A stretch of 64,000 nt of DNA from Thermoplasmatota archaeon (GCA_028279595.1 JANQNK010000019.1:1-64000); one strand, 5' to 3'. Shown: positions 7,343 through 22,951, counted from the first letter of the stretch. Numbers and translations are program-made. Notes: generated from the letters alone by a model not told the origin.

Positions 7343-7417
7343 GGGCCCGTAGGGTAGCTTGGCCGATCCTCGTGGCTTTGGGAGCCATGGACTCCGGTTC
7401 AAATCCGGGCGGGCCCA
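7343..7417 (+). tRNA. tRNA-Pro(UGG), integration target
   Basis: Acceptor stem GGGCCCG/CGGGCCC-A, anticodon arm GTGGC-TTTGGGA-GCCAT, T-loop TTCAAAT, upstream TTATATA box. Confidence 0.95.
7400..7417 (+). repeat. attL core CAAATCCGGGCGGGCCCA
   Basis: Identical to 21930-21947. Confidence 0.93.
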
Positions 7418-7425
7418 CTTCCTCT

Positions 7426-8418
7426 CTAGCGTCCGTTTTCGGCACTTTCAGAGACATTTCTGCCATTATCAATCACCTCGTTGTTTATATGAGATTGTTG
7501 GGGACCCAAAGACGACAAAGCATCAGTCACCTTTGCGAGCCCATTTTGAACGTCATCAAAGTTGATTCCAAGGTACCGAATCGTCGTTTCGGTATTGGAA
7601 TGACCTAGAGCATAACTCACTGTAGCAACGTTCTTCGTTTCGTCGTACATTAGACGACCGAAGGTTCTACGGAGATCATGAGCGCTGAAATCGAAACCAC
7701 ATCGTTTCGAGATTCGTTTAATAATCAAATCAATTGAAGATCGTTTGTAACCTTTCAACTGATTCTTAGACCGATAGATTATCAATTGACCAGAATCCTC
7801 AATACCCATTCCGGGATGAGTTGCTTCAATCAATTGTTTTTGAAGGTCTCGATATTGAAAATATATTTTGAATGTTTCCTTGGTCCAAGGATTAAAAGGA
7901 ATATCACGTTCTTTTCCATCACGGTATCCCTTACCGCGTACACGAATACGATTCCTGTTCATATCGATGTCGTCGATACGAAGTCGAAGAACATCAACAC
8001 GACGAAGTCCTAGAAGAACCATAAGGTGAACTACCATACGTTCAGTTGGAACTTGTGATTCTCTAAGTAAGGTTTTAACTTGGGGTGTTGTCAACCATCG
8101 ACCAACATGTTGATGTTTCGGAATCAGTATCTTATATTTTTGAAGTACATCATTTCCAAGGAACTTCAAATAGATCTTCAAAACGCGATGATGCCAATTC
8201 ACACGGCCGTGCGCATCAAGAACAGCACCAACATCTTCAATGGTCCATGATTGTGGTAATGATAAGTTTAGTTTGTCTGAAGCTTCAAGCAATCGATGAA
8301 TTACAGTTTCATATTCGTGTATTGTTGTCTCGGCAACTCCCTTTGCGCGTAGCTCTCGTTGCCACCGTTCTACATCGCTCCAACCCGACAGATTCATTGG
8401 GACCACTTCAACGGGCAT
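7426..8418 (-). CDS. int: Tyrosine recombinase/integrase
   Basis: Catalytic residues in LGLRR (R), RGKG (K), HDLRR (HxxR), LGHS (H) and TIRY (Y); ends 8 nt from attL. Confidence 0.95.
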   Translation of the reverse strand: MPVEVVPMNLSGWSDVERWQRELRAKGVAETTIHEYETVIHRLLEASDKLNLSLPQSWTIEDVGAVLDAHGRVNWHHRVLKIYLKFLGNDVLQKYKILIPKHQHVGRWLTTPQVKTLLRESQVPTERMVVHLMVLLGLRRVDVLRLRIDDIDMNRNRIRVRGKGYRDGKERDIPFNPWTKETFKIYFQYRDLQKQLIEATHPGMGIEDSGQLIIYRSKNQLKGYKRSSIDLIIKRISKRCGFDFSAHDLRRTFGRLMYDETKNVATVSYALGHSNTETTIRYLGINFDDVQNGLAKVTDALSSLGPQQSHINNEVIDNGRNVSESAENGR

Positions 8419-8453
8419 CTATATTCAGCAATCCATTATCACTATATATATGT

Positions 8454-8485
8454 TCCTGTTTTCGTTATATTTAACGATAATAGGA
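8454..8485. promoter_or_regulatory. Imperfect palindrome between the divergent int and RHH genes (candidate operator)
   Basis: TCCTGTT-T-TCGTTA-TATT-TAACGA-T-AATAGGA, lying among TATA-like tracts. Confidence 0.45.
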
Positions 8486-8522
8486 CAACATATTACATAT
8501 TCTACTACACTGATATCGACAT

Positions 8523-8693
8523 ATGCCCCGATATCAAGGTGTAAGTATCCCAGTTAATCTGCTTGAACAAATAGACCTATTTCTCAAACTTTATCCTCAA
8601 GCGGGATATTCAAACCGCGCTGATTTCATGAGATCAGCCATTCGCCACCACCTCCTCGAACTTCAAAACCGATATAAAGATGACGATAAGTGA
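8523..8693 (+). CDS. Ribbon-helix-helix (CopG/NikR-like) regulator, 56 aa
   Basis: Manual translation MPRYQGVSIPVNLLEQIDLFLKLYPQAGYSNRADFMRSAIRHHLLELQNRYKDDDK; classic RHH pattern (VSIP..L...ID...GY.NR..F.R.AIR). Confidence 0.85.
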   Translation: MPRYQGVSIPVNLLEQIDLFLKLYPQAGYSNRADFMRSAIRHHLLELQNRYKDDDK

Positions 8694-8725
8694 TTCCTGA
8701 CCTATTTTTTACATATTTTTAACTA

Positions 8726-9397
8726 ATGACTACGGTATTCTACTGTATGAACAAGCGACAGCCATTAATATTCTTCAGCCATCATCATTCCGAGGCAACA
8801 TTATTAACCCCAGTAGTTAATATTCTTGAATTATATGGATTCAATTGCTTTCTTGCTCATCTTCATATTAGCCCTTCAAAAAACTGGAAGCACACAATCC
8901 TAGAAAATTTGAAAAACTGTGATTTTTTTATCCCATTCCTCTCAAACGAATTCAAATCATCTCCATGGTGTGATCAAGAATCAGGGATCGCTTATGAAAA
9001 AAATAAAGTCATTATCCCGATTATTGTCACGCTCGAACCATACGGTTTTCTATATGAAATTCAAGGAATTTCCTATAAATCAAATCAAGCAAATTTACCA
9101 AACGCTATTCTTGATGCAATTGAAACCGGATCATTTTCCCTTCGTTTTCATCTCATTCAACACCTAAAATTTAGTGATTCTTTTCAACAATCTAATCTCA
9201 TAATATCACGTATTCGTAAATATTCAAGATTTAGTATAACCGAATTAGAATCAATTTTGAATGCAATATTTAAAAACCAACAAGTCAACGAAGCATTCGA
9301 AACAAAAAAACTAATTAAGAAAATCATCGTTCAGAATTCACACGACATTTCCGAATATCAAAAAAACAAACTCCTAAATATTGAAAAATCAATCTAA
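8726..9397 (+). CDS. TIR-domain protein (putative NADase or signal-producing enzyme)
   Basis: IFFSH...GFNCFLAH..I.....W...I...L..CDFFIPFLS..F..SPWCDQE.G.A; putative catalytic Glu retained; helical C-terminal extension. Confidence 0.88.
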   Translation: MTTVFYCMNKRQPLIFFSHHHSEATLLTPVVNILELYGFNCFLAHLHISPSKNWKHTILENLKNCDFFIPFLSNEFKSSPWCDQESGIAYEKNKVIIPIIVTLEPYGFLYEIQGISYKSNQANLPNAILDAIETGSFSLRFHLIQHLKFSDSFQQSNLIISRIRKYSRFSITELESILNAIFKNQQVNEAFETKKLIKKIIVQNSHDISEYQKNKLLNIEKSI

Positions 9398-9508
9398 TAA
9401 TCAACTCCATCTTACATTCAAACATATATTCACAGCTTTAAATAACAAGCAAATCCCGTCTAATTCAAATATTCAATTCAGGTACCTCGAGGACTCCTTT
9501 AAATTATA

Positions 9509-9667
9509 TCACATCACTTCTTTGAAGGACGTGAATTGATCACTGCCGCAGTCAGGACAACCGTTCTGGCGATGCTGACAAAGATAACAGATTACGGTAC
9601 CGCATTTTACACAACGGACGTAACTTGCATAGTAACTTGAAACGTTGCAGCTAGTACATCTTACCAT
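9509..9667 (-). CDS. Small zinc-finger protein with 4 CxxC motifs, 52 aa
   Basis: Manual translation MVRCTSCNVSSYYASYVRCVKCGTVICYLCQHRQNGCPDCGSDQFTSFKEVM. Confidence 0.7.
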   Translation of the reverse strand: MVRCTSCNVSSYYASYVRCVKCGTVICYLCQHRQNGCPDCGSDQFTSFKEVM

Positions 9668-9758
9668 CAGTTCACGAAGCGTCAATGAGAATTGGTCATA
9701 TCTCGATTATGACCTTTTTTTTACGCACGTTTTTACTAGTTGAGGAAATCAGTCAATT

Positions 9759-9923
9759 ATGAGTGAAATTTACATCGGATTCATTTGTCCCAAATGTGAA
9801 TTCGGACTCCAATTCCTTTACAAACACTACGAGGAAGCTCTCCGTAGAGATGTAGTCCTAGCATGCCCTAAGTGCCTATTTGAATTCGACGTAAAACAAC
9901 TCAAACAACTAAGAACCAAGTGA
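9759..9923 (+). CDS. Small zinc-ribbon protein, 54 aa
   Basis: Manual translation MSEIYIGFICPKCEFGLQFLYKHYEEALRRDVVLACPKCLFEFDVKQLKQLRTK (two CPKC motifs); GAGG upstream. Confidence 0.7.
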   Translation: MSEIYIGFICPKCEFGLQFLYKHYEEALRRDVVLACPKCLFEFDVKQLKQLRTK

Positions 9924-9930
9924 ACAATAT

Positions 9931-10218
9931 CTACATTGCTGTATTAAAATAATCATCTAGAAGTATTCGGAATATATCCATAGGATCCTCAAGAAAATCT
10001 TTTAACTGTTCTATATTCATATAATCTACTGAACGTATTCCAATATGATCTCCAATCTTGATCTGTACAGACACCTCACTGGTATCTTTATTATAGATGA
10101 CTCTACCGATGAAGACATCTCCATGATATTGGACTTCTGCACGGTATCCAAGTTCTGTATCGCTCTCGAGTTTGGATTTCGCATCGACGTCGACGAAGAA
10201 TCCTTCAGATTCTGACAT
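9931..10218 (-). CDS. Hypothetical acidic protein
   Basis: 95-aa ORF with globular composition, convergent with the zinc-ribbon gene. Confidence 0.55.
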   Translation of the reverse strand: MSESEGFFVDVDAKSKLESDTELGYRAEVQYHGDVFIGRVIYNKDTSEVSVQIKIGDHIGIRSVDYMNIEQLKDFLEDPMDIFRILLDDYFNTAM

Positions 10219-10467
10219 TCAATCAAGACCAGGAGGCGCTATTGATATATCTAATTCCTAACCATTTCTTTACGAAGTCGATTGGTTCGCTCAAAATCAC
10301 AATTATGCAAAATCCTTGATCTCGATCCTTTCCTTGCTTGATAGAAATTGAACGTGAGATCTCGAACCATTCAAGTGGCCTTCTCAAATTCATAACCAAA
10401 GTGACGCACATTGCTAGATATGCGACATTCTTAAGTAAATGTCAACATTAGTACTCCTGGGATCAAC

Positions 10468-10680
10468 ATGCCAAAGGATCAAACTAAGTTTAAAGACATG
10501 ACAGGAAAACAAGCCTGGTTATTTGGAACAAGACTATATCTCGTGGGTATCGGCTCTGCGATTCTAGTAGGCGGGATCGTGCTTGGATTCATCCATGGAT
10601 TTACGCCGATAACTATTGGGCTCAACGTCACAATAGGATTGATTTCAATCGGATTGGGTATTATTTCAAAGGTAGATTAA
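10468..10680 (+). CDS. Small 2-TM membrane protein
   Basis: Two hydrophobic helices; abuts the next ORF. Confidence 0.65.
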   Translation: MPKDQTKFKDMTGKQAWLFGTRLYLVGIGSAILVGGIVLGFIHGFTPITIGLNVTIGLISIGLGIISKVD

Positions 10681-10896
10681 ATGACAAATGAATTATCGAC
10701 GGAAAGATGCCCAGAATGTTCAAACCATCTCGAAGACGGATACTTTGTAAAATCAGGTTATGCATTAGGTTGGTCAACTACACCTAAAGGATGGAAAGCG
10801 GAAGAACTTCTTTTCCACTTTTCTGCGCGACCTAAGAATAATTTCGTTAAGGCAAAACGATGCTCTACTTGTAGAATTCTCATAGTTCAATATTGA
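10681..10896 (+). CDS. Zinc-ribbon protein (DUF6487/PF20097-like pattern)
   Basis: CPEC...LEDGY......W...A.RC..C.I. Confidence 0.7.
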   Translation: MTNELSTERCPECSNHLEDGYFVKSGYALGWSTTPKGWKAEELLFHFSARPKNNFVKAKRCSTCRILIVQY

Positions 10897-10929
10897 TCTA
10901 ATTGTGTAACAATCTCCATAAGATATATT

Positions 10930-11469
10930 ATGGCTATTATCATTCCAACGCATATGCAATTACTAAGCTGTGGGACCATTATCGTGTTATCAATCCTGAT
11001 CATCGGATGTGTTGATCCTACATCATACGATGAAACCGATCCTGGTTACATGTATCACGGAGCAAATTCTTCCGTTAATTTCACAAGTATTGGAGATACG
11101 AATTATCTTGAATACATTGACCAGTTTATCTCCGAGCTAAGTAAGAATATCACTGTAGAATTTGACTCAGACGTTAATATCGTTTGGATCCATGAATCTA
11201 ATCGGACAACATATATTCAAGGAGCTCTACACTATCATAACTATACGAATCATATTGAAAGTCGGATATTCGGCTACTATGTCGGTGGTGACCGATACAA
11301 ACCATACAATACAATGTCAAAATGTCAAGCGAATATTACGGAAGAATATTCTCAGGATCTATCGCTTCTTCGATACCATGTTCGTGTTATCCTGAACGGA
11401 ATTAAGGAAATCTATCATCATGATACGCAAATTGAGGATGAACAGTTTTGGAAAGTATTTACAGGATAA
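10930..11469 (+). CDS. Putative lipoprotein or secreted protein
   Basis: Hydrophobic N-terminus ending in lipobox-like IIGC. Confidence 0.6.
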   Translation: MAIIIPTHMQLLSCGTIIVLSILIIGCVDPTSYDETDPGYMYHGANSSVNFTSIGDTNYLEYIDQFISELSKNITVEFDSDVNIVWIHESNRTTYIQGALHYHNYTNHIESRIFGYYVGGDRYKPYNTMSKCQANITEEYSQDLSLLRYHVRVILNGIKEIYHHDTQIEDEQFWKVFTG

Positions 11470-11557
11470 TCTCAATCAATTACATTTTGCTTAACCCAAC
11501 AACGTCAATTAATCGTTATGATGAATTATCAAGAAGTTGTTATTAGTATTAACAACT

Positions 11558-11794
11558 TTATTTCGAATATAGTTTACAGGATATTATTTTCATCCGTTCC
11601 TCATTTTCAGTTTTAACAGCCATAGTTGCCATTATACCTGCTGTTGATGCGAGAAATGACATTAAAATTAACAATAATAATCCTAGTTTACCATCACAAT
11701 CGTAGACATATGCAGAAATCATTCCAAAAATAAAAGAAACAAGTAATAATCCGCTGGTCAATAACCACATATATTGTGATAAATACCCAACCAT
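11558..11794 (-). CDS. Small 2-TM membrane protein
   Basis: Two hydrophobic helices; GGGGTG RBS-like motif upstream. Confidence 0.6.
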   Translation of the reverse strand: MVGYLSQYMWLLTSGLLLVSFIFGMISAYVYDCDGKLGLLLLILMSFLASTAGIMATMAVKTENEERMKIISCKLYSK

Positions 11795-11861
11795 TAACTA
11801 ACACCCCAGTACTAGTCCTCACAAGCTAATATGAGAACTGTATATTTAATATTAACTAATA

Positions 11862-12071
11862 TTAACAATAATATTTCTTAGCAATAAACGGTGATACGAT
11901 CAATATTGCCCATCCAATCATTATTATAAATAAAAATAACGACCCACCAATCCATACTTCTAGTAATGCTCCAAGGATCATTACGACTAACCCGAGAATC
12001 AAAACAATTCCCGGAACTTGAAAAAGAATCGTAGTTATTGGTACTTTCTCCATCTTGTTTGCCTCTGCCAT
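11862..12071 (-). CDS. Small 2-TM membrane protein
   Basis: Two hydrophobic helices; GGTGGTG upstream. Confidence 0.6.
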   Translation of the reverse strand: MAEANKMEKVPITTILFQVPGIVLILGLVVMILGALLEVWIGGSLFLFIIMIGWAILIVSPFIAKKYYC

Positions 12072-12629
12072 TTCACACCACCGCCTTCTCCCAATTTATT
12101 ATTAGCTGAAAATTATATAAACCTGCCGGTGACATAACAACTTGCTGATCCTTCTGCTCTTTCTCTTCGCTTAAGGGATTAGCGGTCCTATACTGCCTAT
12201 CGATATTTAAGTTTGTAACGTTATAAATACTTATCGCCGATGATCGTTGATTATCATTCTCAATAAGACCATCTATCACACCTATCATATCTGAGCCCCC
12301 GCATTCGATAAATCCACATCACTAGATTATCTAGTTCTGCGAATCTCTAATCGAATCTTATCATCTATCAATTTACACCATATATAATTTATGTTCACAA
12401 GTATAAATTAATATCAATAATTCAACATTCCTTTAAACAACATCTCATTTTCACATATACATTCCCGTTTTAATAATTAATCGCCATTTTCTGAAATCAT
12501 TTTTTCCGTTATTTATTGTAAATTCAATTCTCGCCAAATAATTCTCAACCTCATTTCTCCAATATATTTGAGAGTTGGCCTGGGTTTTCTTAGATTTTCG
12601 ATTTACGATACATCTATTTCTCTCAACCT

Positions 12630-12940
12630 GCCGACCTTAAATTAGATTCATAGGGGGCCCCTGCGGGGCCCCAGGTCGGCCCCCTCCCCACGGAGGCCGA
12701 GAGGGGCACGGAGAATAGGGAGAAGAATGAGAAGAAGAATTGAAACCGCCCCTCTATTCGGCCTCCTAAAGGGTAGGGACTGAACTGCGTTTTAAAGGTT
12801 ACAGGAAACGGCATCAGAACAAAAATAGACGATAGTAAAGTGCGTCGTTTCACACGGTGAAACAACGCCACGTACTTGGATGCCTCTGATAGACCACTAA
12901 TATCCTCGAGAGCGACGGTAAAGATAGTATGTTACGCCGA
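12630..12940. other. Hairpin-rich non-coding island, candidate rolling-circle origin or packaging signal
   Basis: GCCGACCT/AGGTCGGC arms enclosing GGGGCCCC-TGC-GGGGCCCC; GGAGGCCGA/TCGGCCTCC; 12-bp hairpin at 12842-12868; lies directly downstream of rep. Confidence 0.5.
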
Positions 12941-13003
12941 GGATCACAATCCATGCGATGCATACAGGAGGATTTAATTCCATTATCAAAATCATTACAA
13001 CAC

Positions 13004-14254
13004 CTACGTATTTACTGCATCTGAGACTACTTTATCTCCAACAATGTTTCCAGATTTCTCGACTCTTACCTTTTTCAATTTCACTCCTTGTTTCTTCACT
13101 AACTCTGAATCAAGCTCATAGTAATACTGGCCACCAATTAATTTCGCTCTCATTAAATGTCTACTTCCATAGCTCCTATACTTATCTGGAACCTCATGTT
13201 TTTGTACGTATCCACGTCGACGCAAAGTATCCCAAAAACGAACCTCATCTTCATTCACGGCGCCAACCTTCAAGGCGATCTCAAGAAGATCATCGTTGAC
13301 ATCCGCACTACCATCGATGATGTCCTCGATTGGGAAACTCTCGTGGATAGGATTTACGAACTTGGTCCAAAGACTACCCTTGGTGTAAGCAGAATCGAAC
13401 ACCGTTCCAACCTGAGAACTGACCTTGCGTTTCTTGAAGTTGTCTCCTTCTATCATTATCTCGAAACGGATCCTGTCAAGTGCTTTAGCGTATATCTTAA
13501 CCTTGCCACGGTTGTTGAACATGGTACAGATGACGGAGTTAGATTGGAACCGTGGGTCTGAATGGACATTGACTGCGAAGCCTAACTTCGAGGCGAGGTC
13601 TACTCCTTGGTCATAGAAGAATTTGATTATCTCACGCATGACAGCTGTTGCGGTGTGGTCCTCGAAGATGTAGTCCTTGGCAACCTCTACGTGTTTGATG
13701 ACCATCTGTTCGTGGAGCCTTTGAACGTCCATGTATTCGGGGATCTCGAGGCCTACCTTCTCAAGACCGGTGACCATCATTCGATCAACGTCATACCATT
13801 TCGGTAAAGAGGCACGATTGTCATCCATTAACTTTTGTTCTGAAACGCCGGCCAAGTCAACATCAATGAAGTTGTCAGATTTCATCACAATCCGTTTGTA
13901 CCCGTCATAGTCAAGGTCCAGACCATAACCCGCTTTCTGATTGCGGATAGCATTACCCTGAATCCTTAGTTGACTGTTCTTCATCTGGTAGTATCCTTCA
14001 ACGCAAGGTTTTGCCTTCGATGTTGCTGCACCCCATCCATGACGTGCATAGTGCTTCCGGAGGACATCGGGTTGGTATCGGAATTTAGGTAATCCCGATC
14101 TTGACATTTGGTAGAATAGGTCAGAGTTCTTGGTCAAATATTCACGGAGGGCCTCAACGTACTCATCAAAGATGATATCGCCCTGGCGTACTGCTCGCGA
14201 GTAGCCAAGGACAATGACATTGTCTATCAAAGGAGGCGTTGAGGACCACTCCAT
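13004..14254 (-). CDS. Putative rolling-circle replication initiator, Rep_trans/gpII-like
   Basis: Motif order typical of Rep_trans: N-terminal IDNV, IKHVEVAKD (cf. RxDxAxD), VKIYAK (candidate catalytic Tyr), RIRFEI; GGAGG RBS. Confidence 0.65.
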   Translation of the reverse strand: MEWSSTPPLIDNVIVLGYSRAVRQGDIIFDEYVEALREYLTKNSDLFYQMSRSGLPKFRYQPDVLRKHYARHGWGAATSKAKPCVEGYYQMKNSQLRIQGNAIRNQKAGYGLDLDYDGYKRIVMKSDNFIDVDLAGVSEQKLMDDNRASLPKWYDVDRMMVTGLEKVGLEIPEYMDVQRLHEQMVIKHVEVAKDYIFEDHTATAVMREIIKFFYDQGVDLASKLGFAVNVHSDPRFQSNSVICTMFNNRGKVKIYAKALDRIRFEIMIEGDNFKKRKVSSQVGTVFDSAYTKGSLWTKFVNPIHESFPIEDIIDGSADVNDDLLEIALKVGAVNEDEVRFWDTLRRRGYVQKHEVPDKYRSYGSRHLMRAKLIGGQYYYELDSELVKKQGVKLKKVRVEKSGNIVGDKVVSDAVNT

Positions 14255-14274
14255 GTAGATGGTCCTCCGTCACA

Positions 14275-16773
14275 TTATCTTCGTTTTCTAGGTAGCAACA
14301 ACAACAGTATCAGAAGTCCTATGAACACATATAACAGGAAGTTACCTCCGAACATATTCTCCAAGGCAATGTCAACAGTTCCAGTTATCTCCTTAGAGAC
14401 GCCTTCGATGTTAGTCACTTGAACATCGACCTTCTCAGTACCAACGGTATATGGTATCTTGAGGGTCATCGTGATATTAACCGCTTTACCGCCGGCGACA
14501 AGGATCTCATTGTCAATGTCCTCAGTGGTAGTGTATTGGAGGTCAGTGTCAATCTCGACGAAGAACGTGTCCTGAGCGTTCCCGCGATTATAGATCATCA
14601 AGTTCATGACTTCAACATTACCTGGTGAAGCGTCGATGCGTTTTGGAATTAAATCGATGGCGAAACTGTATGCAGGAACGAAGTCATCGGAGGTCCAATT
14701 CTGGGCTTCTATCGAGACATTGTAATACGCATCTTCAGGGTCCTTCACCTGAACTGAGTAATTGCCCCAGTAATCAGTGGTCTGTTGATAGTTTCCGTCC
14801 TGGTCGAGAATAAACACTTCAACGAATGCTTGACGATTAGTTGTTCCAGTACCGATGAGAACTGCACCGTTGTCGTAGACGTACACAGTGGCGTTAGAAT
14901 CGCCATTATAACGCTCTCTGGTGTAGCCTTGAGCCGTGTTAGTGAAGAGGACGTAGTAGCTCGGAGTCAGTTGACCACCGTCTATGTTCTCTACGGGATC
15001 AAAAGCAAAGATTATCTCGTTGATAACAAACGAATCGAAGTTCGTGAGGATGATAGAGTTCTCTGATTCAGTGCCATCTGTTACAGGGGCCCGGAACTGT
15101 AATTTGTCATTGAAATCGTTATACGTCAATGCAACTTGACAAGAGTCTCCATCAGTGCCGGAACGACCGACAAAGGTCTGGTTCAGAGAACCATTCGGAG
15201 GCTCTTCCTGTGTAATGGGAGGAAAGTTCAGTTGGACAGGTATACGATCCCGTGAATACGCCCAATTCGATGTAGATGAATTGCTTGGAGGTACAGGGGC
15301 AGGACCTACCCAACATATCAACAAGAAAGTGCCGGAATAGGAACCTGGAGCTTGTGTTGATGGAATCGGTAGTTCGTCGACAGTGAACTTCTTGTTGTTA
15401 CCTGCTAGGATTGGGAATGGATCTAATGCACCGTGACCAAGACTGTCAAGATAATCGAAATTGACCTCCTCGTTCATGTATTCACAAAGTTTTGCATCTT
15501 CGAAACTGATTGGTGTACCAGGACCGAGCATCGGATTCATTGTTATTTCAATCGAATCAACGTCGTATGTTCCTTCATTCTTGATACGGACAGTATCTAC
15601 AGCATCATTATCCTGATCTGGAATCAGGGTTCCATAACCTAATTTCGTCTTCGCATTATTCGTTACTTTCTCTTTGTACTCCATTGTTAAAAGAAAGTCA
15701 GCACCGCTGGAATATTCTCCCTGGAAGATGTCAACGAGATTACTGTTCCCGTATGCATCATTCACTCCTTGCACTTCGACGTTACAATAGTAATCACCTT
15801 CTGGTTCAGTCGGATCAACATCCTTGATGACACCATCAAATAATAAAAATGCCAAAGGTGCTAGTGGTGTCACGGGAGTATAGGTACACGTAAACTTACC
15901 ATCTGACGCGGTATCATCTTCGATAGGAACAGGAGGTGCCGTAGGCACTATCTGAAAGTTCTGATCGACATAGATGATATCAGCATCCTTGACGAAGTTC
16001 GACACCTCGAAATTGATGTGGTCAATCACAACATTGCCAACGTTTGTTACCTTCAATTGATTGATAGTGGCAGAGGGGCCCTGGACAACTGCCGTTGGAA
16101 AGTTCCAATAGGTTGCCGCATCGGAGATCTCCACTGTTATCTGAACGTTCTCTGCAACATCACCGCCAGATTCACCCTGCGGAGGAGGATCATCACCTCG
16201 AGCTAGACCAACAAGGTTGAACATTTCGGGTTTGATATGCATCGATGCTAATGGCGTGTAGTATGCTGTGATTGTGAAGATGTTTGTCAAGTATCCACGC
16301 AATGAGGTTGAAACGTTCAGTAAGAACACACGGATACGAATCGAATCTCCCTTCTCAAGCGACAAACCACCGATCAGGATTGATTGTTCCGAGGCGTAAT
16401 AGCTCTTGTTGTTCAAGTTATGTGTGACCTTGAAACTGCCTTCTGTGAAGAAGGTCGCGAAATCTCCAGTCATGTCAGGGAATTCTACCAGAATAGTAGT
16501 GTATCGTCGTGATTCGTCGGTATTCTTCAGTTTGATTCGATTGTCAGACTTTACATTAACGATTTCTTCGGAACCGTTGTATGCATTACCCCAGTTCTGA
16601 GTAAATCGAAGCATGTCACTACCGTCAGAATACGTTAGAACAAGGCCTCCACCATCGGCCTTGACTAATCCAACTAGCTCGAGCAAGGGAGTGAATCCCA
16701 TAAGTACGATGACCCCAACAAGAGTCAACGCTACTATCTTCCTACTTGCGAATGTTCTTTTCATTAATCTCAC
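14275..16773 (-). CDS. Large type I membrane-anchored surface protein (candidate spike/adhesin); start probably ATG at 16764
   Basis: Signal peptide, several beta-rich Ig-like modules, C-terminal TM followed by PRKRR; GAGGTGA precedes ATG at 16764. Confidence 0.75.
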   Translation of the reverse strand: MRLMKRTFASRKIVALTLVGVIVLMGFTPLLELVGLVKADGGGLVLTYSDGSDMLRFTQNWGNAYNGSEEIVNVKSDNRIKLKNTDESRRYTTILVEFPDMTGDFATFFTEGSFKVTHNLNNKSYYASEQSILIGGLSLEKGDSIRIRVFLLNVSTSLRGYLTNIFTITAYYTPLASMHIKPEMFNLVGLARGDDPPPQGESGGDVAENVQITVEISDAATYWNFPTAVVQGPSATINQLKVTNVGNVVIDHINFEVSNFVKDADIIYVDQNFQIVPTAPPVPIEDDTASDGKFTCTYTPVTPLAPLAFLLFDGVIKDVDPTEPEGDYYCNVEVQGVNDAYGNSNLVDIFQGEYSSGADFLLTMEYKEKVTNNAKTKLGYGTLIPDQDNDAVDTVRIKNEGTYDVDSIEITMNPMLGPGTPISFEDAKLCEYMNEEVNFDYLDSLGHGALDPFPILAGNNKKFTVDELPIPSTQAPGSYSGTFLLICWVGPAPVPPSNSSTSNWAYSRDRIPVQLNFPPITQEEPPNGSLNQTFVGRSGTDGDSCQVALTYNDFNDKLQFRAPVTDGTESENSIILTNFDSFVINEIIFAFDPVENIDGGQLTPSYYVLFTNTAQGYTRERYNGDSNATVYVYDNGAVLIGTGTTNRQAFVEVFILDQDGNYQQTTDYWGNYSVQVKDPEDAYYNVSIEAQNWTSDDFVPAYSFAIDLIPKRIDASPGNVEVMNLMIYNRGNAQDTFFVEIDTDLQYTTTEDIDNEILVAGGKAVNITMTLKIPYTVGTEKVDVQVTNIEGVSKEITGTVDIALENMFGGNFLLYVFIGLLILLLLLPRKRR

Positions 16774-16775
16774 CT

Positions 16776-17693
16776 CTATCCGAGTAATCGATATTGATAC
16801 AGATCGACCTGGTCCTCATCGTCACCTTGTATTGGTGTATCCCAAGTCGGATACTTCGTTATCTCAGGTTTCGTGATCTTTGCCGTTGTACAAAGACGGA
16901 AATCCGGCAATCCGAACATTTGACTCAACCAACTCAAGTCGAGCCATGTCTTCGTGACTGCACGCATCTGTGTCCATTTCGCTTCTGCATTACCGTCATA
17001 ACCTTTCGCCTTTACATCAAGGTCAGAAGGATCCTCGAGTTCCTTCAATGGGATGAACAGCTCAACAGAATCATAGTAAACATCGTCTCCTTCATCGTAC
17101 ATATCTGGAACAGGGAAGCGAACGAAGAATATCATCGACCAAGACTGATGAGCGACAGTGTTGAAATCGCCAAGAGCACTCGCTTGTTCAACATGAATGT
17201 AAAATGGAAGAACAGTGTTCATACGGTCCCCAATATCTTCAAGGACGAACTCTCCACCATTCGTTATCGGTTTTGGTGTCTTTTCTGCTTCTGAAACGAA
17301 ATCGGTATTCAAGTCACCTATCACAGTTCCTGTGGTTTTCCGCTCTGCCTTGATGATCCTACCGTTAAGAATGTATTCTTCAGTCTTACCTACACGATTC
17401 CCGACCATTGCATCAAATTGATGACGGTAGATTACCGTAGGTTCAGGGGTATGATCATTGCCGATCTCTCCCCAGATCTTCCAATCTTGGACCTTAGCAG
17501 AACCTTCAGTTCTAATGTCCGATTCGACATGAACACTGAAAGGTATTCGGATTAACATACCGACTGCCCCTGCACTTTTCACCGGCCTACGGTCATCAAA
17601 AAGATTAGGGGGGCCATCTCCGCTGAGACAGCCCATCGATACGAATCCGTTGCTGACTACCAGCACAACTAAAGCCAATGCGGTTAGACGCAT
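16776..17693 (-). CDS. Putative lipoprotein (candidate virion envelope protein)
   Basis: Signal peptide ending MGCLS (archaeal GC lipobox); GGAGG RBS. Confidence 0.7.
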   Translation of the reverse strand: MRLTALALVVLVVSNGFVSMGCLSGDGPPNLFDDRRPVKSAGAVGMLIRIPFSVHVESDIRTEGSAKVQDWKIWGEIGNDHTPEPTVIYRHQFDAMVGNRVGKTEEYILNGRIIKAERKTTGTVIGDLNTDFVSEAEKTPKPITNGGEFVLEDIGDRMNTVLPFYIHVEQASALGDFNTVAHQSWSMIFFVRFPVPDMYDEGDDVYYDSVELFIPLKELEDPSDLDVKAKGYDGNAEAKWTQMRAVTKTWLDLSWLSQMFGLPDFRLCTTAKITKPEITKYPTWDTPIQGDDEDQVDLYQYRLLG

Positions 17694-17738
17694 TTTCCGG
17701 CCTCCATTCGTATCTTACGTGTTGTCAGATGGTAGGGC

Positions 17739-18587
17739 TCAGAAACGTCTACGTCCTGACCCTCCTACTCCACGAGCAAGTGGTTTCCCAACGTACGATG
17801 CCAGGAAGAACACCACCATCACGCTAGCAATGATGAGTACCACAAGTATCAGTACTGCAGGGAGTACAAGCATTCCAAGGAACAATGCGCCAATCACCAC
17901 GATTCCGAGTACACCACTGACAAGAGGACTCAATCCAAGCAGGAATATCAGAACAACTCCGATAATGAGTCCGAATATCAGAGTGTAAAGGAGAGATCCG
18001 CCGAGGTAATCTGCGTTCAGGTCGAAGAGATATGGGCTATCGCTATCACCATCTCCCTGAACATCAACTGAGGTGTTACCCTTGACGTAGATGGCCTCGT
18101 TCTTGATGCCATCGCCCTTGATCTCATAGAAGCGCTTGTTCTCGACAAGGATCTCACTAATACCAGAATCGTCAGTAATTCCACGGTAGGTACAGTTACT
18201 GCCCTCGGCAGATACAATGAAATCCTCGACAGGATATCCATTCTCGTCCTCTACGTACACCGATAAGGTAACGTAGTCGTTGAGTGTGTAGGATTGGTTC
18301 TCATCAGTATAGATGATAGTAGAATCACCCTTACGATAGTCGATGAGTTTCCAAAGACCCTTGTCTAATTCGAATGATGCTTCATTCGTGGTCAAGGTCT
18401 TCGTTTTGTTCGTACTTCCTACACCATCATCCCAGTCGTAATCACGAACTGTGATTGGTCTATCAGCACCTGAACTATAGATGCTGACTGTGTGAGCTTC
18501 TGCGGTCACACTCGCCACGATCGACATGCAAAGCAATAGGGCAACGAGCCCTAGTCCAACAGCGTTCATTCGCTTCATATCTTTCAC
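17739..18587 (-). CDS. Secreted-domain membrane protein with three C-terminal TM helices
   Basis: AEA signal peptidase site, beta-sandwich-like segment, hydrophobic C-terminus and basic tail. Confidence 0.75.
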   Translation of the reverse strand: MKDMKRMNAVGLGLVALLLCMSIVASVTAEAHTVSIYSSGADRPITVRDYDWDDGVGSTNKTKTLTTNEASFELDKGLWKLIDYRKGDSTIIYTDENQSYTLNDYVTLSVYVEDENGYPVEDFIVSAEGSNCTYRGITDDSGISEILVENKRFYEIKGDGIKNEAIYVKGNTSVDVQGDGDSDSPYLFDLNADYLGGSLLYTLIFGLIIGVVLIFLLGLSPLVSGVLGIVVIGALFLGMLVLPAVLILVVLIIASVMVVFFLASYVGKPLARGVGGSGRRRF

Positions 18588-18901
18588 GTCTCCATTTCAT
18601 CCAACGATATCGGTGCTGGAACCGTCCATACTACGGCAATGAATTCCTCAATCAACATCTGAAAAAAGAGACGAACATCATCTCCGGCGACGTCCACTCT
18701 TCTTGAAACGACGTTTCCGTCCCTTCCCTCGATAACGGCGCTTCTTCCGGTACGTTGTGGTCTTGGACTTCCATCTACCTGACTTCCCGGTGCCAGCTCG
18801 GAATCTGCCCCGAGGACCGTAGGGCTGACGGAACGAACCTCTGACTCGTGTACCCTTCCGCAGTCTCTTACTGCGAGTCTTTTTATACGCCAGGGTATCA
18901 C
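18584..18901 (-). CDS. Hypothetical protein (element operon)
   Basis: GTGA overlaps with both neighbours. Confidence 0.65.
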   Translation of the reverse strand: MIPWRIKRLAVRDCGRVHESEVRSVSPTVLGADSELAPGSQVDGSPRPQRTGRSAVIEGRDGNVVSRRVDVAGDDVRLFFQMLIEEFIAVVWTVPAPISLDEMET

Positions 18902-19074
18902 CCCTTTAGGTTAAATTTTGCCATTTTTGGCAACATTCTCAGTGTTTTCCGTTTCCGGCGCCGTTCCATTCCATTCCGTAACCGCTCCAATAACAACTGA
19001 CGCAATGAGTCGAAGAATAATCGATATAATATGAAAGAAATAACAAACATAATCGCCCAATATTCGAATTTCAT
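18898..19074 (-). CDS. 58-aa single-TM protein with highly basic C-terminus (not in ORF track)
   Basis: MKFEYWAIMFVISFILYRLFFDSLRQLLLERLRNGMERRRKRKTLRMLPKMAKFNLKG; 4-nt overlaps at both ends. Confidence 0.7.
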   Translation of the reverse strand: MKFEYWAIMFVISFILYRLFFDSLRQLLLERLRNGMERRRKRKTLRMLPKMAKFNLKG

Positions 19075-19403
19075 GCCATACCACCATATACGGAGGCGTA
19101 GGCGTCCATCTTCGCTACGAGATCATCAAGAGCATCAATTCGAGCGAATACATCTGACCTCGAGATTGTGCGAACATTCGTGACAGAACGATAGATCTCA
19201 CTGAGTAGAGTCCTACGATAAGGATTCAAATCTTCTACTACCATATCAACAAGGCAGAGTGATGAAGCAAGGGCGTGAGCCCGTTCTTTCATTGCAGTAA
19301 GTTCGGGATCCATCACGCGATAACGGGACATCTCAACACGGGTTGCACGATATTTTCGAAATATTCGACGACGGTGTACAGCCGGATCCTTCATTTGTTT
19401 CAT
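19071..19403 (-). CDS. Hypothetical helical protein
   Basis: ATGA overlap with the upstream ORF; GGAGG RBS. Confidence 0.7.
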   Translation of the reverse strand: MKQMKDPAVHRRRIFRKYRATRVEMSRYRVMDPELTAMKERAHALASSLCLVDMVVEDLNPYRRTLLSEIYRSVTNVRTISRSDVFARIDALDDLVAKMDAYASVYGGMA

Positions 19404-20035
19404 GGAGTATCGGCCTCCCGGAATGCGCCTTTCTGCTGAGTAATATTGATACCTTTGATCAGTGAAGATGACGATTTAATTACACGCTCATGGTACTGAA
19501 CTTCCTTGTCAAGGTACTTGCCCATGATGTGAATCTTCGCTTGATCCACATTGGCGAATGTGATGCCACTATGATTGACATATTGAATAGGACGGACCAT
19601 CGCCTTTTCGTACAGGTGAGGGCCGAACTTGATGATTCCACCATTAACGGAACGTTCTGCGATCACTACGAAATTATTGGTTTTGTCGTTGTCAGAATAT
19701 ACAGCAGTCTCGACGGTCATTGCAAAACGCATTATGAAATTAATGCCGACCATTATAGACATGACCTGGCCGAAGGTGTACAACATATGGATCTCGTCCA
19801 TTGTAATCGGTTCGTATGGACCGTAGTAATGATGTTCCCGAATCATTCCTCGAGGAAGCATGTAATACTGAGCGAAGAGAAGTACAGCACCACAGAAAAT
19901 GAATGGCATCAGTGAGACGATAACTCGTTTTACCATCTCTTTTCTAAATGCCATGATGTACTCTGCATGTTCTTTGTCGAGGCGCTCTCGAGAGTCTTCA
20001 AAGCCAGGAGTCTCACCCTCGACGATGAAGAACAC
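19400..20035 (-). CDS. 2-TM membrane protein
   Basis: Two hydrophobic helices followed by a soluble domain; overlaps the ATPase stop. Confidence 0.7.
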   Translation of the reverse strand: MFFIVEGETPGFEDSRERLDKEHAEYIMAFRKEMVKRVIVSLMPFIFCGAVLLFAQYYMLPRGMIREHHYYGPYEPITMDEIHMLYTFGQVMSIMVGINFIMRFAMTVETAVYSDNDKTNNFVVIAERSVNGGIIKFGPHLYEKAMVRPIQYVNHSGITFANVDQAKIHIMGKYLDKEVQYHERVIKSSSSLIKGINITQQKGAFREADTP

Positions 20036-20753
20036 CTCCTTTCAATTCGTGGACCGAGAACATATTCTGAAGGATGTCTCGACCCCATGCAGAACCTCGT
20101 AATGCGTAAGGAGACCGATGGCCCACTAGTAAGAAAACGATTCCTCGTTTCCTTCCCTGAAAAATTAGATTTGGGACCATGCTGTTCACGTCGTGACGCT
20201 CTAGACCCTCGGTCTCCTCGAGAACTACTATCGTCCCGAAACGATCTCGGTGAATCTCGTTGGAACGACGGATGAGTGAGGTGATAAGAAGCACTAATTG
20301 AAAGTGGCTATAGTCTGGGTGAGGGGTTATCCGAATCCGTGATTCTAGATTTAAAACCTTGATGATATCTTGACCGTTGAATAACGGGGAAAGCTTGTCA
20401 ATTGCACGGTTGAAAGCATCAGATTGGGTCTTTGACAGACCGTTCAAATCAAATGATTCTCCACGTAATCTAGGAACGAGATAATGCGTGTATTGTGCTT
20501 CAGTACGAAGAAGAGCTTGCACTAATTCTACGTTAACCATTGATCTAGGTAGTCCAACATTAACACGACGACCACGGTATTCGTTTTCATAGTCAAATAC
20601 AACAACACGATGAGGTGTCGAATTCAATAAATCTTGAACGTAACGGGTCTTTCCAGAAGCAACCTTTCCATATAAATAGTGAGCATAACCACGTTGTCCA
20701 CCAACTTCAATTTGTGATAATTCATTCAATACAAACTCAGGGAGTTGATTCAA
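20013..20753 (-). CDS. Minimal FtsK/HerA-superfamily ATPase (A32/P9-like packaging or extrusion motor)
   Basis: Walker A GKVASGKT, VVVFDYENEY, Walker B IVVLEE, arginine finger GRKRG; probable TTG start at 20753 overlapping the upstream TGA. Confidence 0.82.
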   Translation of the reverse strand: MNQLPEFVLNELSQIEVGGQRGYAHYLYGKVASGKTRYVQDLLNSTPHRVVVFDYENEYRGRRVNVGLPRSMVNVELVQALLRTEAQYTHYLVPRLRGESFDLNGLSKTQSDAFNRAIDKLSPLFNGQDIIKVLNLESRIRITPHPDYSHFQLVLLITSLIRRSNEIHRDRFGTIVVLEETEGLERHDVNSMVPNLIFQGRKRGIVFLLVGHRSPYALRGSAWGRDILQNMFSVHELKGGVLHRRG

Positions 20754-21157
20754 CCGAAAACCCCCTGAGAGGGACGCAGTATCCGGATGAAGGGGACCAC
20801 CCAAATAAAGTTTGCAAGTGCTCTGCGCCCCTCGTTGCTTGAAATATGGAAGAGTCCGGCCTTGCGAATGTCGCCCTCACAAGGTGGAAATTCCCGGCAC
20901 TCTTCCAAAGAGAAAAACGATTTCAGTTTACTTAATAGTTGTGTGTATATAACCACACAGTTTGGGGGATACGCAGGGACCAATATTGGTATTCCGGATT
21001 TCAGGTGGCGGACGTATCCCCCGTTGTGGGCTTTTCGGAAGAGAACCCTTAGGGGTGACGATGCGTTTTTCCAATGGGTACAACAATCTATCTCTTCCGA
21101 TAAAGGAACGACATGGATTGACGTATATATACGTTTTAGAAAAAACCGGACAATCAA
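20750..21157 (-). CDS. Hypothetical protein (probable TTG start, 135 aa)
   Basis: AAGGAGG precedes TTG at 21157, which overlaps the upstream stop; its own stop overlaps the ATPase start. Confidence 0.55.
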   Translation of the reverse strand: MIVRFFLKRIYTSIHVVPLSEEIDCCTHWKNASSPLRVLFRKAHNGGYVRHLKSGIPILVPAYPPNCVVIYTQLLSKLKSFFSLEECREFPPCEGDIRKAGLFHISSNEGRRALANFIWVVPFIRILRPSQGVFG

Positions 21158-21345
21158 GGATGATGGCCTCCTTGAGTATAGGGGAGGATATTCGAAGGAT
21201 GGGACGCATCTTTCAAAATCATATCCTCCCCGACGAACAAAGAACCTTGACGTTTTGGAACTCCAAGATACAATCCACATCTCGGGCAGTAATCGTGCGA
21301 TTCACAGTCCCTGAAACCACAACAAGGGCATAGAATGCAAGCCAC
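21154..21345 (-). CDS. Small zinc-finger protein
   Basis: CPCCG and CPRCG motifs. Confidence 0.6.
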   Translation of the reverse strand: MACILCPCCGFRDCESHDYCPRCGLYLGVPKRQGSLFVGEDMILKDASHPSNILPYTQGGHHP

Positions 21346-21374
21346 GAAACCACCAATAAAAATGGGGAGGGGGA

Positions 21375-21818
21375 TTACTCCCCCAGAGTTGCCCTCTCTG
21401 CCATTGTCTCCGCTGCGACTCGGACATCATCCAACGACATGACCGCCATCTCGTCGTAGGTCCGATTGTCGGTGCCCTTCCTCTTGTAGATATGAGCTAC
21501 AAAGAGATCCCCTGGCTCAAGGTTTCGCATAGCATCATGCTTGGCATAGCGCATATGATTCATCTCATAAACGCTATTCACCGGTTCACCCGGACGACCT
21601 CCGATGAACCAGATCTTCGCATCGGTCTGGGGAGTAGACTTCTTCTGTCCATCCTTCTCCCACTCACCAGTGCTGATCTCCTTCGAAAGGAGACAGGCAA
21701 AGTAGAACCCTACGTTGGGTGTTCCCATGTACATCGGGATGTCCGTAGGGATATCACCTACTTCCATACCAAAGAGTTCCGCTGCCGTTCCAATCACGTT
21801 TTCCGCTGCCGCTTCCAT
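21375..21818 (-). CDS. Hypothetical protein, candidate OB-fold ssDNA-binding protein
   Basis: GGAGG RBS; beta-rich LEPGDLFVAHIYKRKG...TY pattern reminiscent of phage SSB OB folds (inference). Confidence 0.6.
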   Translation of the reverse strand: MEAAAENVIGTAAELFGMEVGDIPTDIPMYMGTPNVGFYFACLLSKEISTGEWEKDGQKKSTPQTDAKIWFIGGRPGEPVNSVYEMNHMRYAKHDAMRNLEPGDLFVAHIYKRKGTDNRTYDEMAVMSLDDVRVAAETMAERATLGE

Positions 21819-21929
21819 ATTTTCATTCCTCCAATTATGCTGTCTGTCCTAACTCAGAAGGACCGTGATTCATGAACTCCTCAAGCACTCTGGCATACTC
21901 CGAAATGACCGCCTCAAAATCATTAGTCA

Positions 21930-21947
21930 CAAATCCGGGCGGGCCCA
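21930..21947 (+). repeat. attR core CAAATCCGGGCGGGCCCA
   Basis: Identical to 7400-7417. Confidence 0.93.
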
Positions 21948-21976
21948 TCGTTACTCATTGATCTATCATAGAAGAT

Positions 21977-22212
21977 GGGCCCTTCCTCTCCTCGAAATAA
22001 TCCTAGATCCGATTAAAGCATTTCGAGGATCCGGGTATTCCAACTGATTATTCCAAGCGGGCCCACTCGCCCTCTCGTGGAACAGGTCTTCATTAAACTA
22101 ACATCATGTTCCACGATCCGGGAATAATGCGAGGCCGATCACTTCGGGCCCACTCGCCCTCTCGTGGAACAGGTCTTCAATAACCTAGCATCATATTCCA
22201 CGATCCGGGAAT
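21977..22212. repeat. Tandem hairpin repeat array (three units, 81-87 bp period)
   Basis: 22058-22125 and 22145-22212 are 68-bp copies with 4 differences; a diverged unit starts at 21977. Confidence 0.85.
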
Positions 22213-22213
22213 G

Positions 22214-22951
22214 TTAGGGGAACAGAGAGAGCTTGAAGTTGTCGAGCACCATAACCGCATTTCCATCGATTCCCAGGTTCACCTGCCAGTTCTCAACACC
22301 TCTTGCCTGGGCATCCTCCGCTGCAGCGAAGATCCTCTCGTTATCCTTAGCCCTGGGAGGTGGAACGAACGGAGGCGCATCGTACATGAAGGCGAGCAGG
22401 AGGATGGCTCTGGAACCTTCCCCCTTCTGATCGGCGAGCTCCCCGAAGTGCTTTATCAATCTGTCGAATTGGTCGAACCTCGACGGAGGACGGGTCTTCG
22501 TCTTGGTCCTGGTTCCTACGGGGAGGTCGATCAGAGGCATCTTCACCTCGATGTAGGCGTTTCCGACCTTGAGGTCGAGCCTTGAGTCACCGAGCGCGAC
22601 CTCGTGCTTGATCTCACCTCCTTCCGGAAGCATTTCGTCGAAGGCGCCCTCCCGGATGAAGTGCTCGACGTACTTGTTTATACGGTTCTGGTTGATGCCT
22701 ATCCAGGATTTATTCTTTCGCTCGGGCGGATCGACGGAGATGGCCTCTACGGTAAAGTCGGTCGTCCGGCCCTTGGTCTGGGCGGGTGTCATTAGGCACG
22801 GGACGTCCTCGAAGACGATATTGCCGATCCTTCCCGTCGAGGGACAGTGACAGCGATGCTCCACACCATCGATGTCGACGAACATGATGAACCTGTTCGG
22901 TCTCGACTTGATCAGCCCCTCCACGAGTGGCTCGTTGAACTTGATCTGCAT
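22214..22951 (-). CDS. sfsA: SfsA-family nuclease (sugar fermentation stimulation protein)
   Basis: RPNRF, HCPSTGR, SRLD, YIEVK and RLIKH motifs. Confidence 0.9.
   Translation of the reverse strand: MQIKFNEPLVEGLIKSRPNRFIMFVDIDGVEHRCHCPSTGRIGNIVFEDVPCLMTPAQTKGRTTDFTVEAISVDPPERKNKSWIGINQNRINKYVEHFIREGAFDEMLPEGGEIKHEVALGDSRLDLKVGNAYIEVKMPLIDLPVGTRTKTKTRPPSRFDQFDRLIKHFGELADQKGEGSRAILLLAFMYDAPPFVPPPRAKDNERIFAAAEDAQARGVENWQVNLGIDGNAVMVLDNFKLSLFP

Follow-up and report, generated by a model that had tools for sequence, protein, structure and literature searches.

Tandem hairpin units partly made of a tRNA 3' end beyond the attR site of an archaeal integrated island, and related units behind other tRNA genes of the same Thermoplasmatota genome

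A 64,000-nt stretch of a Thermoplasmatota archaeon genome (GCA_028279595.1, JANQNK010000019.1:1-64000; referred to here as the window) contains a 14.5-kb island bounded by exact repeats of the end of a tRNA-Pro(UGG) gene, and beyond its distal attachment site (attR) lies a short array (21939-22212) in which the two halves of the attachment (att) core recur around 22-nt inserts and alternate with hairpins. An initial annotation, made from the sequence alone, described this structure and proposed integration scars, decoy att sites, or a tRNA-processed small-RNA array, which raises the question of what the array is and whether it is a by-product of the island at all. We found that the array consists of three copies (A, B, and C) of one small non-coding hairpin module, which is partly made of the last bases of tRNA-Pro. 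Its elements are listed below in window coordinates with the evidence for each of them (R1 denotes the covariance model introduced further on).

21930..21947, + strand: attR, i.e., the original tRNA-Pro 3' end in its displaced position (sense copy S0); identical to 7400-7417 over 18 nt
21948..21975, + strand: 28-nt linker, including on the opposite strand GATCAATGAG, which other units have in linkers and hairpin loops as well; sequence
21976..21982, + strand: antisense copy of the tRNA end (TGGGCCC), opening unit A; inverted repeat, pairs with 22059-22065 in the predicted fold
21980..22038, + strand: hairpin module A (TTCCTC, followed by a stem TCCTCGAAAT/ATTTCGAGGA enclosing 21 nt of loop and by TCCGGG); R1, E 1.4e-8
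22036..22057, + strand: 22-nt insert 1, linker-like, with TATTCCAA twice; sequence
22058..22065, + strand: CGGGCCCA, the acceptor part of the sense copy, which closes unit A and can open unit B; sequence, predicted fold
22066..22125, + strand: hairpin module B (CTCGCCCTC, followed by a stem TCGTGGAACA/TGTTCCACGA enclosing 22 nt of loop and by TCCGGG); R1, E 1.6e-10
22123..22144, + strand: 22-nt insert 2, whose GCGAG is able to pair with CTCGC of the module B flank; predicted fold
22145..22152, + strand: CGGGCCCA, closing unit B and opening unit C; sequence
22153..22212, + strand: hairpin module C, inside a 68-nt repeat sharing 94% identity with the one around B, and with a single A·C mismatch in the stem; R1, E 1.9e-10
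22214..22951, - strand: sfsA-like gene, convergent with the array, marking the host-side boundary; Pfam SfsA_N and SfsA

The core ATCCGGGCGGGCCCA is present at 7403-7417 (the end of tRNA-Pro(UGG)) and at 21933-21947, i.e., as two exact matches where 0.18 were expected with two mismatches allowed, and the full identity between both copies amounts to 18 nt, CAAATCCGGGCGGGCCCA. The succession of ATCCGGG, 22 nt, and CGGGCCCA was found at 22029-22065 and 22116-22152, exactly as initially annotated, and in none of 100 shuffled sequences (0/100). The alternating stems, initially given as 9-10 bp with 21-22-nt loops, are three 10-bp hairpins: 21989-21998/22020-22029 (21-nt loop) and 22075-22084/22107-22116 (22-nt loop) are 100% complementary, and the third one (22162-22171/22194-22203) has a single A·C mismatch. 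Modules B and C are contained in two 68-nt repeats (22058-22125 and 22145-22212; 94% identity) lying 87 nt apart, start to start, with 19 unrelated bases in between, and module C ends 2 nt short of the stop codon of the convergent sfsA-like gene. In the assembly, the number of B/C units depends on a single 112-nt unitig, whose depth is normal. A 9-bp inverted repeat, GGGCCCATC/GATGGGCCC (21941-21949/21974-21982), had been overlooked; it places an antisense copy of the tRNA end 28 nt past attR, and the hairpin at 21940-21983, which spans the linker, has a folding z of -3.3. The sense copy of the tRNA end within the array comprises 6 + 8 nt split by 22 nt: it starts at TCCGGG, preceded by GA or CGA and not by CAAA, and its acceptor part follows 22 nt further on.

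The same module (defined as CCCTC, a 10-bp stem, a 20-26-nt loop, the second stem arm, and TCCGG) was found behind other tRNA genes. Behind tRNA-Pro(CGG) on contig C1, the flank CGCCCTC is followed by the stem TCGGGGAAC/GTTCCCCGA, which shows compensatory changes with respect to TCGTGGAAC/GTTCCACGA, and then by TCCGGG; two further copies are located behind tRNA-Tyr on contig C4. In G001, the sole other genome of the same family examined, the module stands behind both tRNA-Pro genes with a 22-base insert between TCCGGG and CGGGCCCA, and module and 22-mer are near-identical at the two loci (the insert differs by 3 bases). The alignment of eight module copies revealed that 95% of cells in the 10-bp stem are paired, compared with 71% in shuffles and 29-56% in slid controls, that six of the ten stem pairs have changed on both sides, and that the covariation score was reached in 0 of 500 shuffles; the loops range from 20 to 26 nt, and module A combines a different stem with the same flanks. 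In the 2.29-Mb genome, the covariance model R1, built from this alignment, had exactly six strong hits, each of which follows tRNA-Pro(UGG)/attR, tRNA-Pro(CGG), or tRNA-Tyr (next E values, 0.12 and 0.34). Across 151 genomes of the phylum, R1 hits were limited to this genome (G000), G001 (three hits), and G117, where tRNA-Pro(CGG) is followed after 26 bases by TGGGCCCG, TCCTC, a 13-bp hairpin, TCCGGA, and CGGGCCC.

These data bear directly on the simplest explanation, i.e., chance or a plain tandem duplication of a terminator hairpin, the latter having been named in the initial annotation as the outcome opposed to its own reading. The adjacent position and 94% identity of the repeats holding B and C would fit such a duplication, but the 19 unrelated bases between the copies mean that they are not arranged head to tail, module A has another stem within the same flanks, and the module recurs at three other loci and in two other genomes. 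The absence of the split pattern from all shuffles, the stem covariation, and the R1 hits contradict it as well, and this explanation is hardly credible, the least probable of those considered.

How the tRNA-derived pieces of the array relate to each other becomes apparent from the predicted folds. In unit A, TGGGCCC (21976-21982) pairs with GGGCCCA at 22059-22065, with the hairpin inside and the 22-mer bulged. Neither unit B nor unit C contains a separate antisense arm. As GGGCCC reads the same on both strands, any CGGGCCCA of the array is able to end one unit and at the same time start the following one, and in the predicted fold of these units the inner GCCC can pair with GGG of TCCGGG. What looked like a split att core is the sense arm of a closing stem, broken at the junction between its T-stem part (TCCGGG) and its acceptor part (CGGGCCCA) by a linker-like 22-mer. 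The split sense arm with its 22-nt insert is also present in G001, and, as judged from the sequences compared, this split-arm variant is conserved in two genera.

The inserts were described initially as unrelated, which is correct insofar as no source was found for them: both inserts and the loops, searched with up to four substitutions, had no match in the rest of the genome except that the B and C loops match each other, and both inserts lacked an exact match in viral contigs (an exact search only, of limited sensitivity). It is incorrect for insert 1, which resembles a linker, since its TATTCCAA word recurs in inverted orientation in the tRNA-Pro(CGG) linker and also in linkers of the genomes G019, G193, and G038 (another family). 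The five base pairs that GCGAG of insert 2 could form with CTCGC may be of chance origin. On this sequence evidence, the inserts are parts of the unit and not foreign spacers.

[quoted passage not shown] As in CRISPR, repeats alternate with short unrelated DNA of fixed length, here 68-nt repeats split by unrelated DNA and two inserts of exactly 22 nt. Unlike CRISPR arrays, which were sought as repeats of 23-50 nt with unique spacers of similar length, the locus has two 68-nt repeats at 94% identity and one diverged module, "spacers" of 19-22 nt, and two to three units. There are two inserts only, the first of them linker-like, neither of them matched elsewhere within the limits given above, and the G001 insert is the same at two loci except for 3 bases. 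The remark in the initial annotation that no cas gene lies nearby stands, as Cas1 (PF01867) had 0 matches in the genome, which is 86% complete, so that its absence is not proven; no IS110-type recombinase was found either. We consider a CRISPR-like or decoy array very improbable.

The relation of the array to the island was addressed by establishing the order of events at this locus, for which three further features are needed.

7343..7417, + strand: tRNA-Pro(UGG), the last 18 nt of which, CAAATCCGGGCGGGCCCA (7400-7417), are the attL copy; ARAGORN, Rfam, direct repeat
7426..8418, - strand: Xer-like tyrosine integrase; Pfam PF00589, E 3e-22
7418..21929, no strand: 14.5-kb low-GC integrated island between the 18-nt repeats, with cargo mostly without recognisable function; GC, Pfam

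At this locus, the 14.5-kb island alone has both an integrase gene beside the tRNA gene and foreign DNA enclosed by exact direct repeats of the tRNA end. Its GC content is 0.35-0.47, compared with 0.55-0.63 outside, and none of 11 open reading frames (ORFs) of the island had a match in PHROGs (0/11). The best NCBIfam model for the integrase is of the XerA type (115 bits, under the cut-off of 220), and the score against the integron integrase model TIGR02249 was 46.9 bits with a cut-off of 265. Rad50 and FEN1, together with XerA-like recombinases, mark the source as an archaeon. Near the integrase, the island encodes a TIR-domain protein (8726-9397, + strand; PF13676, E 2e-17), possibly as a defence gene among its cargo.

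Given how integration proceeds, all DNA beyond attR is the former trailer of the tRNA gene, and the array is older than the 14.5-kb island, which inserted into the 3' end of tRNA-Pro(UGG) and displaced the stack by 14.5 kb. The counterpart of the empty site is found in G001, where tRNA-Pro(UGG) has no island and the modules lie directly between the tRNA and the convergent neighbour that is also present here (a homologue of ORF 22995-24560, at 48% identity). A comparable situation occurs on contig C9, where tRNA-Ala is followed by a 10.2-kb integrase island with an exact 18-nt repeat again starting with CAAAT, and beyond the repeat by a 26-nt linker, an antisense copy, TC, the hairpin TCCTCGAG/CTCGAGGA, and a sense copy; the window and C9 are thus two clear cases of an island inserted between a tRNA and an older stack. 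The C9 island is situated in tRNA-Ala(cgc) (G000:C9:44275-54576), with its integrase (44417-44923) beside the far repeat. No such hairpins are present in the arms of these two clean islands. Among the sequencing runs listed for the locus, one of DNA (perhaps the source sample) and none of RNA was found. The contigs of this DNA run break at 22063-22174, inside the 87-nt repeat, and none of them joins 7417 to 21948; because of this break, they give no reading on copy-number variation or excision.

An integration scar of the present attR or island, as suggested initially, is contradicted by the same module standing behind other tRNAs and behind the island-free tRNA-Pro(UGG) of G001. The whole shared core, including the crossover-side CAAAT..., was not found in the downstream copies of the array; because the T-loop part (CAAA) of the 18-nt identity is missing, these copies are poor candidates for att or decoy sites of the integrase. 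Of the initial interpretation, the link with the tRNA 3' end and with an integration hot spot is upheld, and an origin as a by-product of attR and the island is not; nothing speaks for acquired spacers, either. We infer that the units are neither acquired spacers nor debris of the present island.

The array turned out to be one case of a genome-wide phenomenon. In at least 14 of 47 predicted tRNA genes, an exact 12-14-nt copy of the gene's own 3' end is located 83-290 nt downstream (the last 14 bases of each gene were used in this search, and 14 genes is a lower bound); upstream, no tRNA gene had such a copy (0/47), the longest match being 10 nt. For about 10 tRNA genes, an inverted copy of the own end is found 19-29 nt downstream. 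The regions inspected share a common design: behind the tRNA end come 21-30 nt of linker, then a copy of this end in antisense orientation, one to three hairpins, and finally the whole copy in sense orientation. Units of this design also stand behind tRNA-Ser, tRNA-Glu, and tRNA-Arg of this genome. The antisense copy includes the complement of the discriminator base and, where it is encoded, of CCA (tRNA-Met, tRNA-Tyr, and tRNA-Ser, read by eye), and because of these complements it is an inverted 3' end and not a tRNA 5' end. In the predicted structure, the unit can close into a long hairpin, the base of which reproduces the tRNA gene's 3'-end duplex.

The hairpin bodies form families common to different tRNAs. 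For a three-hairpin body, named alpha, 16 nhmmer hits were obtained, 14 of which lie within 300 nt behind a tRNA on the same strand; the median pairwise identity of alpha bodies is 58% (at most about 70% between different tRNAs), and the three hairpins are kept by compensatory changes. In alpha units, the T-loop is where the sense copy begins, as with the 18-nt repeat bounding the real island. One-hairpin bodies also occur, and the array module represents them behind tRNAs whose T-stem reads CCGGG. Behind several tRNAs, GATCAATGAG or its complement is repeatedly met in linkers and one-hairpin loops (including 21948-21975 and 44962-44983 of the window), as is TATTCCAA/CCAATTGG in linkers here and in another family; these words may be protein-binding sites. 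The window holds a second stack of this kind:

44520..44982, - strand: two 146-nt alpha units with 21-nt linkers and two one-hairpin units (by eye), bounded by antisense and sense copies of the end of the preceding tRNA; Tandem Repeats Finder, sequence

This stack is preceded by an intron-bearing tRNA-Pro-like gene (44984-45098, - strand), which has the acceptor stem and D-arm of tRNA-Pro, shares its first 28 bases with tRNA-Pro(CGG) of contig C1, and has GGG or CGG as candidate anticodon. It was missed by Rfam and reported by ARAGORN as 'tRNA-???' over 44983-45061.

Outside the family of this archaeon, a tRNA-Pro-type end followed after 16-36 nt by its inverted copy was found in 8 of 401 genomes of the phylum (11 sites), and the reversed pattern in none (0). 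At these sites, the inverted repeat runs 3-6 bases into the trailer, the unit ends with the full TCCGGGCGGGCCCA, and two to three units are often stacked. In G019, a unit of about 160 nt is present, with about three differences (hand count), behind tRNA-Pro(CGG) and behind a second tRNA with the same last 17 nt, which is tRNA-Val(CAC) by its anticodon as read by eye. Between G000 and G001, the unit content differs at the same tRNA species. A different repeat was observed at five G001 loci (L234, L236, L240, L249, and L252), behind tRNA-Thr, tRNA-Ala, and tRNA-Ser (twice), and past a tRNA-Arg alpha unit; it has the palindromic ends ACTTTTTCGAA ... GAAAAAGCAC, then GGGACCATTCGCCC ... GGGCGAATGGGCC, and by its sequence looks like a second family of tRNA-trailing repeats.

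Having these features of the family, one may ask whether the units are fossil scars, i.e., remains of successive elements that accreted at tRNA genes and of which later deletions spared only the att-proximal ends. Integration at this locus is proven, and the genome has seven tyrosine recombinases and three islands with exact repeats of a tRNA end. Moreover, behind tRNA-Arg(tcg) on contig C14, a degenerate alpha unit and a two-hairpin unit lie inside a repeat-bounded segment near its far end, just before an exact 14-nt repeat (the right border is ambiguous). This 5.3-kb segment (C14:112203-117598) carries an integrase; the tRNA-proximal flank of this integrase is like that of the one in the window island. 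Random decay, however, would not leave units so uniform in size and architecture, whose hairpins are intact at 58% identity, nor would it produce antisense copies that fit the respective tRNA; such bodies are absent from the arms of both clean islands, and the array copies lack the crossover-side bases. Fossil scars are in our opinion an unlikely explanation.

Among known systems, one of the closest likenesses is with the tRNA-linked repeats (TLRs) of E. coli, attributed to Egan and Landy 1978 as cited in PMC8144298. In the part of PMC8144298 drawn on here, TLRs are described as non-coding repeats that immediately follow tRNA (or rRNA) genes, with one to five of them at a locus, carry at their end 18-19 nt of the tRNA or rRNA upstream, and mostly have no assigned function; three of them (rrA, rrB, and rrF) are processed RNAs. 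The archaeal units agree with them in position (all six R1 hits and 14 of 16 alpha bodies stand behind tRNAs, as do the modules in the empty site of G001). At their 3' end they carry bases copied from the upstream gene, and the 18-19 nt of the TLRs compare here with copies of at least 12-14 nt at 14 of 47 tRNAs (14 nt searched) and with 6 + 8 nt split by 22 nt in the array. They differ in carrying an antisense copy of the end and closing into a long hairpin (the comparison with TLRs covers position and 3' copy only), in having body families common to different tRNAs, in the archaeal host, and in the split sense copy of the array.

Like att duplications and tandem accretion, as presented in the sections of PMC8371274 and, for tRNA fragments, PMC9897764 considered here, the units place tRNA 3'-end copies downstream of the tRNA, at the site of a real integrase island, and the copy in three-hairpin units begins in the T-loop as the 18-nt repeat of the island does. 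In contrast to such duplications, the units are gene-less, 80-200 nt long, regular, and structured, contain an inverted copy, and in the array have copies that start after the T-loop; mini-units of this sort were not described in those sections of either paper. Miniature inverted-repeat transposable elements are a poor match, as the end sequences differ from tRNA to tRNA, copies occur only behind tRNAs, and neither common terminal inverted repeats nor dispersal was found. At the gathering score, Rfam recovered only three tRNAs in the window, the best sub-threshold hits over both arrays having E values of 0.5-4.7. The unit family seems to be undescribed and without an assigned function, and the full-text literature searched, including the main text of the review of archaeal tyrosine recombinases PMC8371274 (supplements being outside its scope), contained no description of such units.

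Taking all this into account, we favour, with a probability of about 0.55, a reading by analogy in which the units are DNA-level recombination or insertion modules, an archaeal analogue of the E. coli TLRs. Recombination at the shared tRNA 3' end would create and duplicate the units and exchange them between tRNA loci, and the agent could be one of the seven tyrosine recombinases of the genome, perhaps acting on a folded form.

The main rival is a structured trailer RNA, in line with the tRNA-processed small-RNA array of the initial annotation. According to it, the units are transcribed with the tRNA or just after it, and the closing stem mimics the acceptor/T-stem helix, so that processing enzymes release a small hairpin RNA or the structure shapes the formation of the tRNA 3' end. 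The preservation of stems by compensatory changes and over two genera, the constrained lengths of loops (20-26 nt) and inserts (22 nt), and the invariable location of the units on the tRNA strand, directly downstream, speak for such RNAs. In the empty site the array would stand directly behind tRNA-Pro, and no T-run of four or more was noticed by eye in the + strand of 21948-22212, which makes the co-transcription proposed initially possible, though no more than that. A precedent is given by the three E. coli TLRs that are transcribed, processed, and bind Hfq and CsrA, as far as the part of PMC8144298 used here reports.

Among the reasons for favouring DNA is that folding energy shows no strand preference: the sense strand was the more stable one in 8 of 20 units, with a mean difference of 0.06 kcal/mol. 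Likewise, the inverted repeats span trailer bases and pair the discriminator and CCA fully, so the antisense arm yields an end unlike that of a tRNA. Further reasons for a DNA-level process are the near-identical units behind the two G019 tRNAs with the same 17 terminal bases and behind the two tRNA-Pro genes of G001, the different unit content of G000 and G001 at the same tRNA species, the start of the alpha sense copy in the T-loop, as in repeats of real islands, and the seven tyrosine recombinases. T-runs stop archaeal transcription, and many linkers open with T-runs that should end it; two stacks (the window and C9) have been tolerated 10-14 kb from the tRNA promoter, and no Rfam family matched. 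On balance, a trailer RNA is a serious though rather doubtful alternative to the recombination modules.

Several points weigh against recombination modules, too. No enzyme has been tied to the units, the two clean islands have no such hairpins in their own arms, and the array units lack the T-loop part of the 18-nt identity of the island ends. Old alpha bodies (median identity 58%) still keep their three hairpins, which fits selection on each resident copy, as an RNA or as a DNA structure, no less well than mobility. Between two genera, the stems (TCCTCGAAAT, TCGTGG...) are conserved and the loops vary freely, which no recombination model considered here predicts, and the fit of the inverted copy to each tRNA has no explanation in terms of recombination. 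Finally, presence/absence or copy-number variation within the population could not be seen, the contigs of the sole run being broken at the repeat.

A more specific version of the recombination modules can be outlined. The attC sites of integrons and the attP(+) site of phage CTX-phi are folded single-strand sites, imperfect palindromes with a variable centre, that are used by tyrosine recombinases. By comparison with them, the units might be folded-hairpin recombination sites, in which one strand rebuilds the duplex of the tRNA 3' end and which Xer-like integrases would insert, stack, and swap by single-strand exchange. This would amount to an integron- or CTX-phi-like platform at archaeal tRNA genes, whose target could be re-set by changing both arms. 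The likeness consists in a palindrome stem that re-creates the target duplex (antisense and sense copies close the units) and in the Xer-like character of the island integrase; unlike in those systems, there is no match to an integron integrase and there are no gene cassettes, and the stem is specific for each tRNA rather than a common R box. This specific mechanism is improbable as it stands.

If the units are recombination modules, they would represent tiny gene-less DNA homing to many tRNA genes with ends fitted to each target, which bears on the evolution of integration sites and on programmable insertion. If they are RNAs, an unrecognised class of processed trailer RNA would be present at no fewer than 14 of the 47 predicted tRNA genes. 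Either way, annotation should not take such copies for att scars of the nearest island or for tRNA pseudogenes. The contribution of the array is context and not a new principle: a split-arm variant in two genera, two cases of an island between a tRNA and a stack, and the empty-site counterpart in a related genome.

Other searches were less informative. Relatives of the sfsA-like protein were found at 16 metagenome loci (best identity 57%), none of which had an R1 module or tRNA-Pro nearby; no integrase relative was confirmed in genome contigs, and the array had no match in phage and plasmid collections. The pattern CGATCCGGRCGGGCCC was found at 54 viral loci and at least 120 genome loci, with titles mostly of GC-rich bacteria, and was set aside as chance after 54 viral and 80 genome loci gave no R1 hit (0). 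The pattern TGGGCCCG-N40-70-TCCGGRCGGGCCCA occurred at three loci in viral contigs, all of them genuine viral tRNA-Met genes. A bridge-RNA origin (IS110-type recombinase, 0 matches in the genome) and a casposon or CRISPR origin were dropped upon the null results given above, and linkers as remnants of integrase gene ends or as promoters showed only a loose pyrimidine-rich likeness and badly spaced TATA-like words.

One observation concerns the assembly itself. The alpha body at the end of contig C1 (238948-238990), which follows tRNA-Ser(cga), matches the end of contig C15 (45057-45141) over 43 nt with 100% identity, and to judge from this overlap the two contigs probably join at the shared alpha body.

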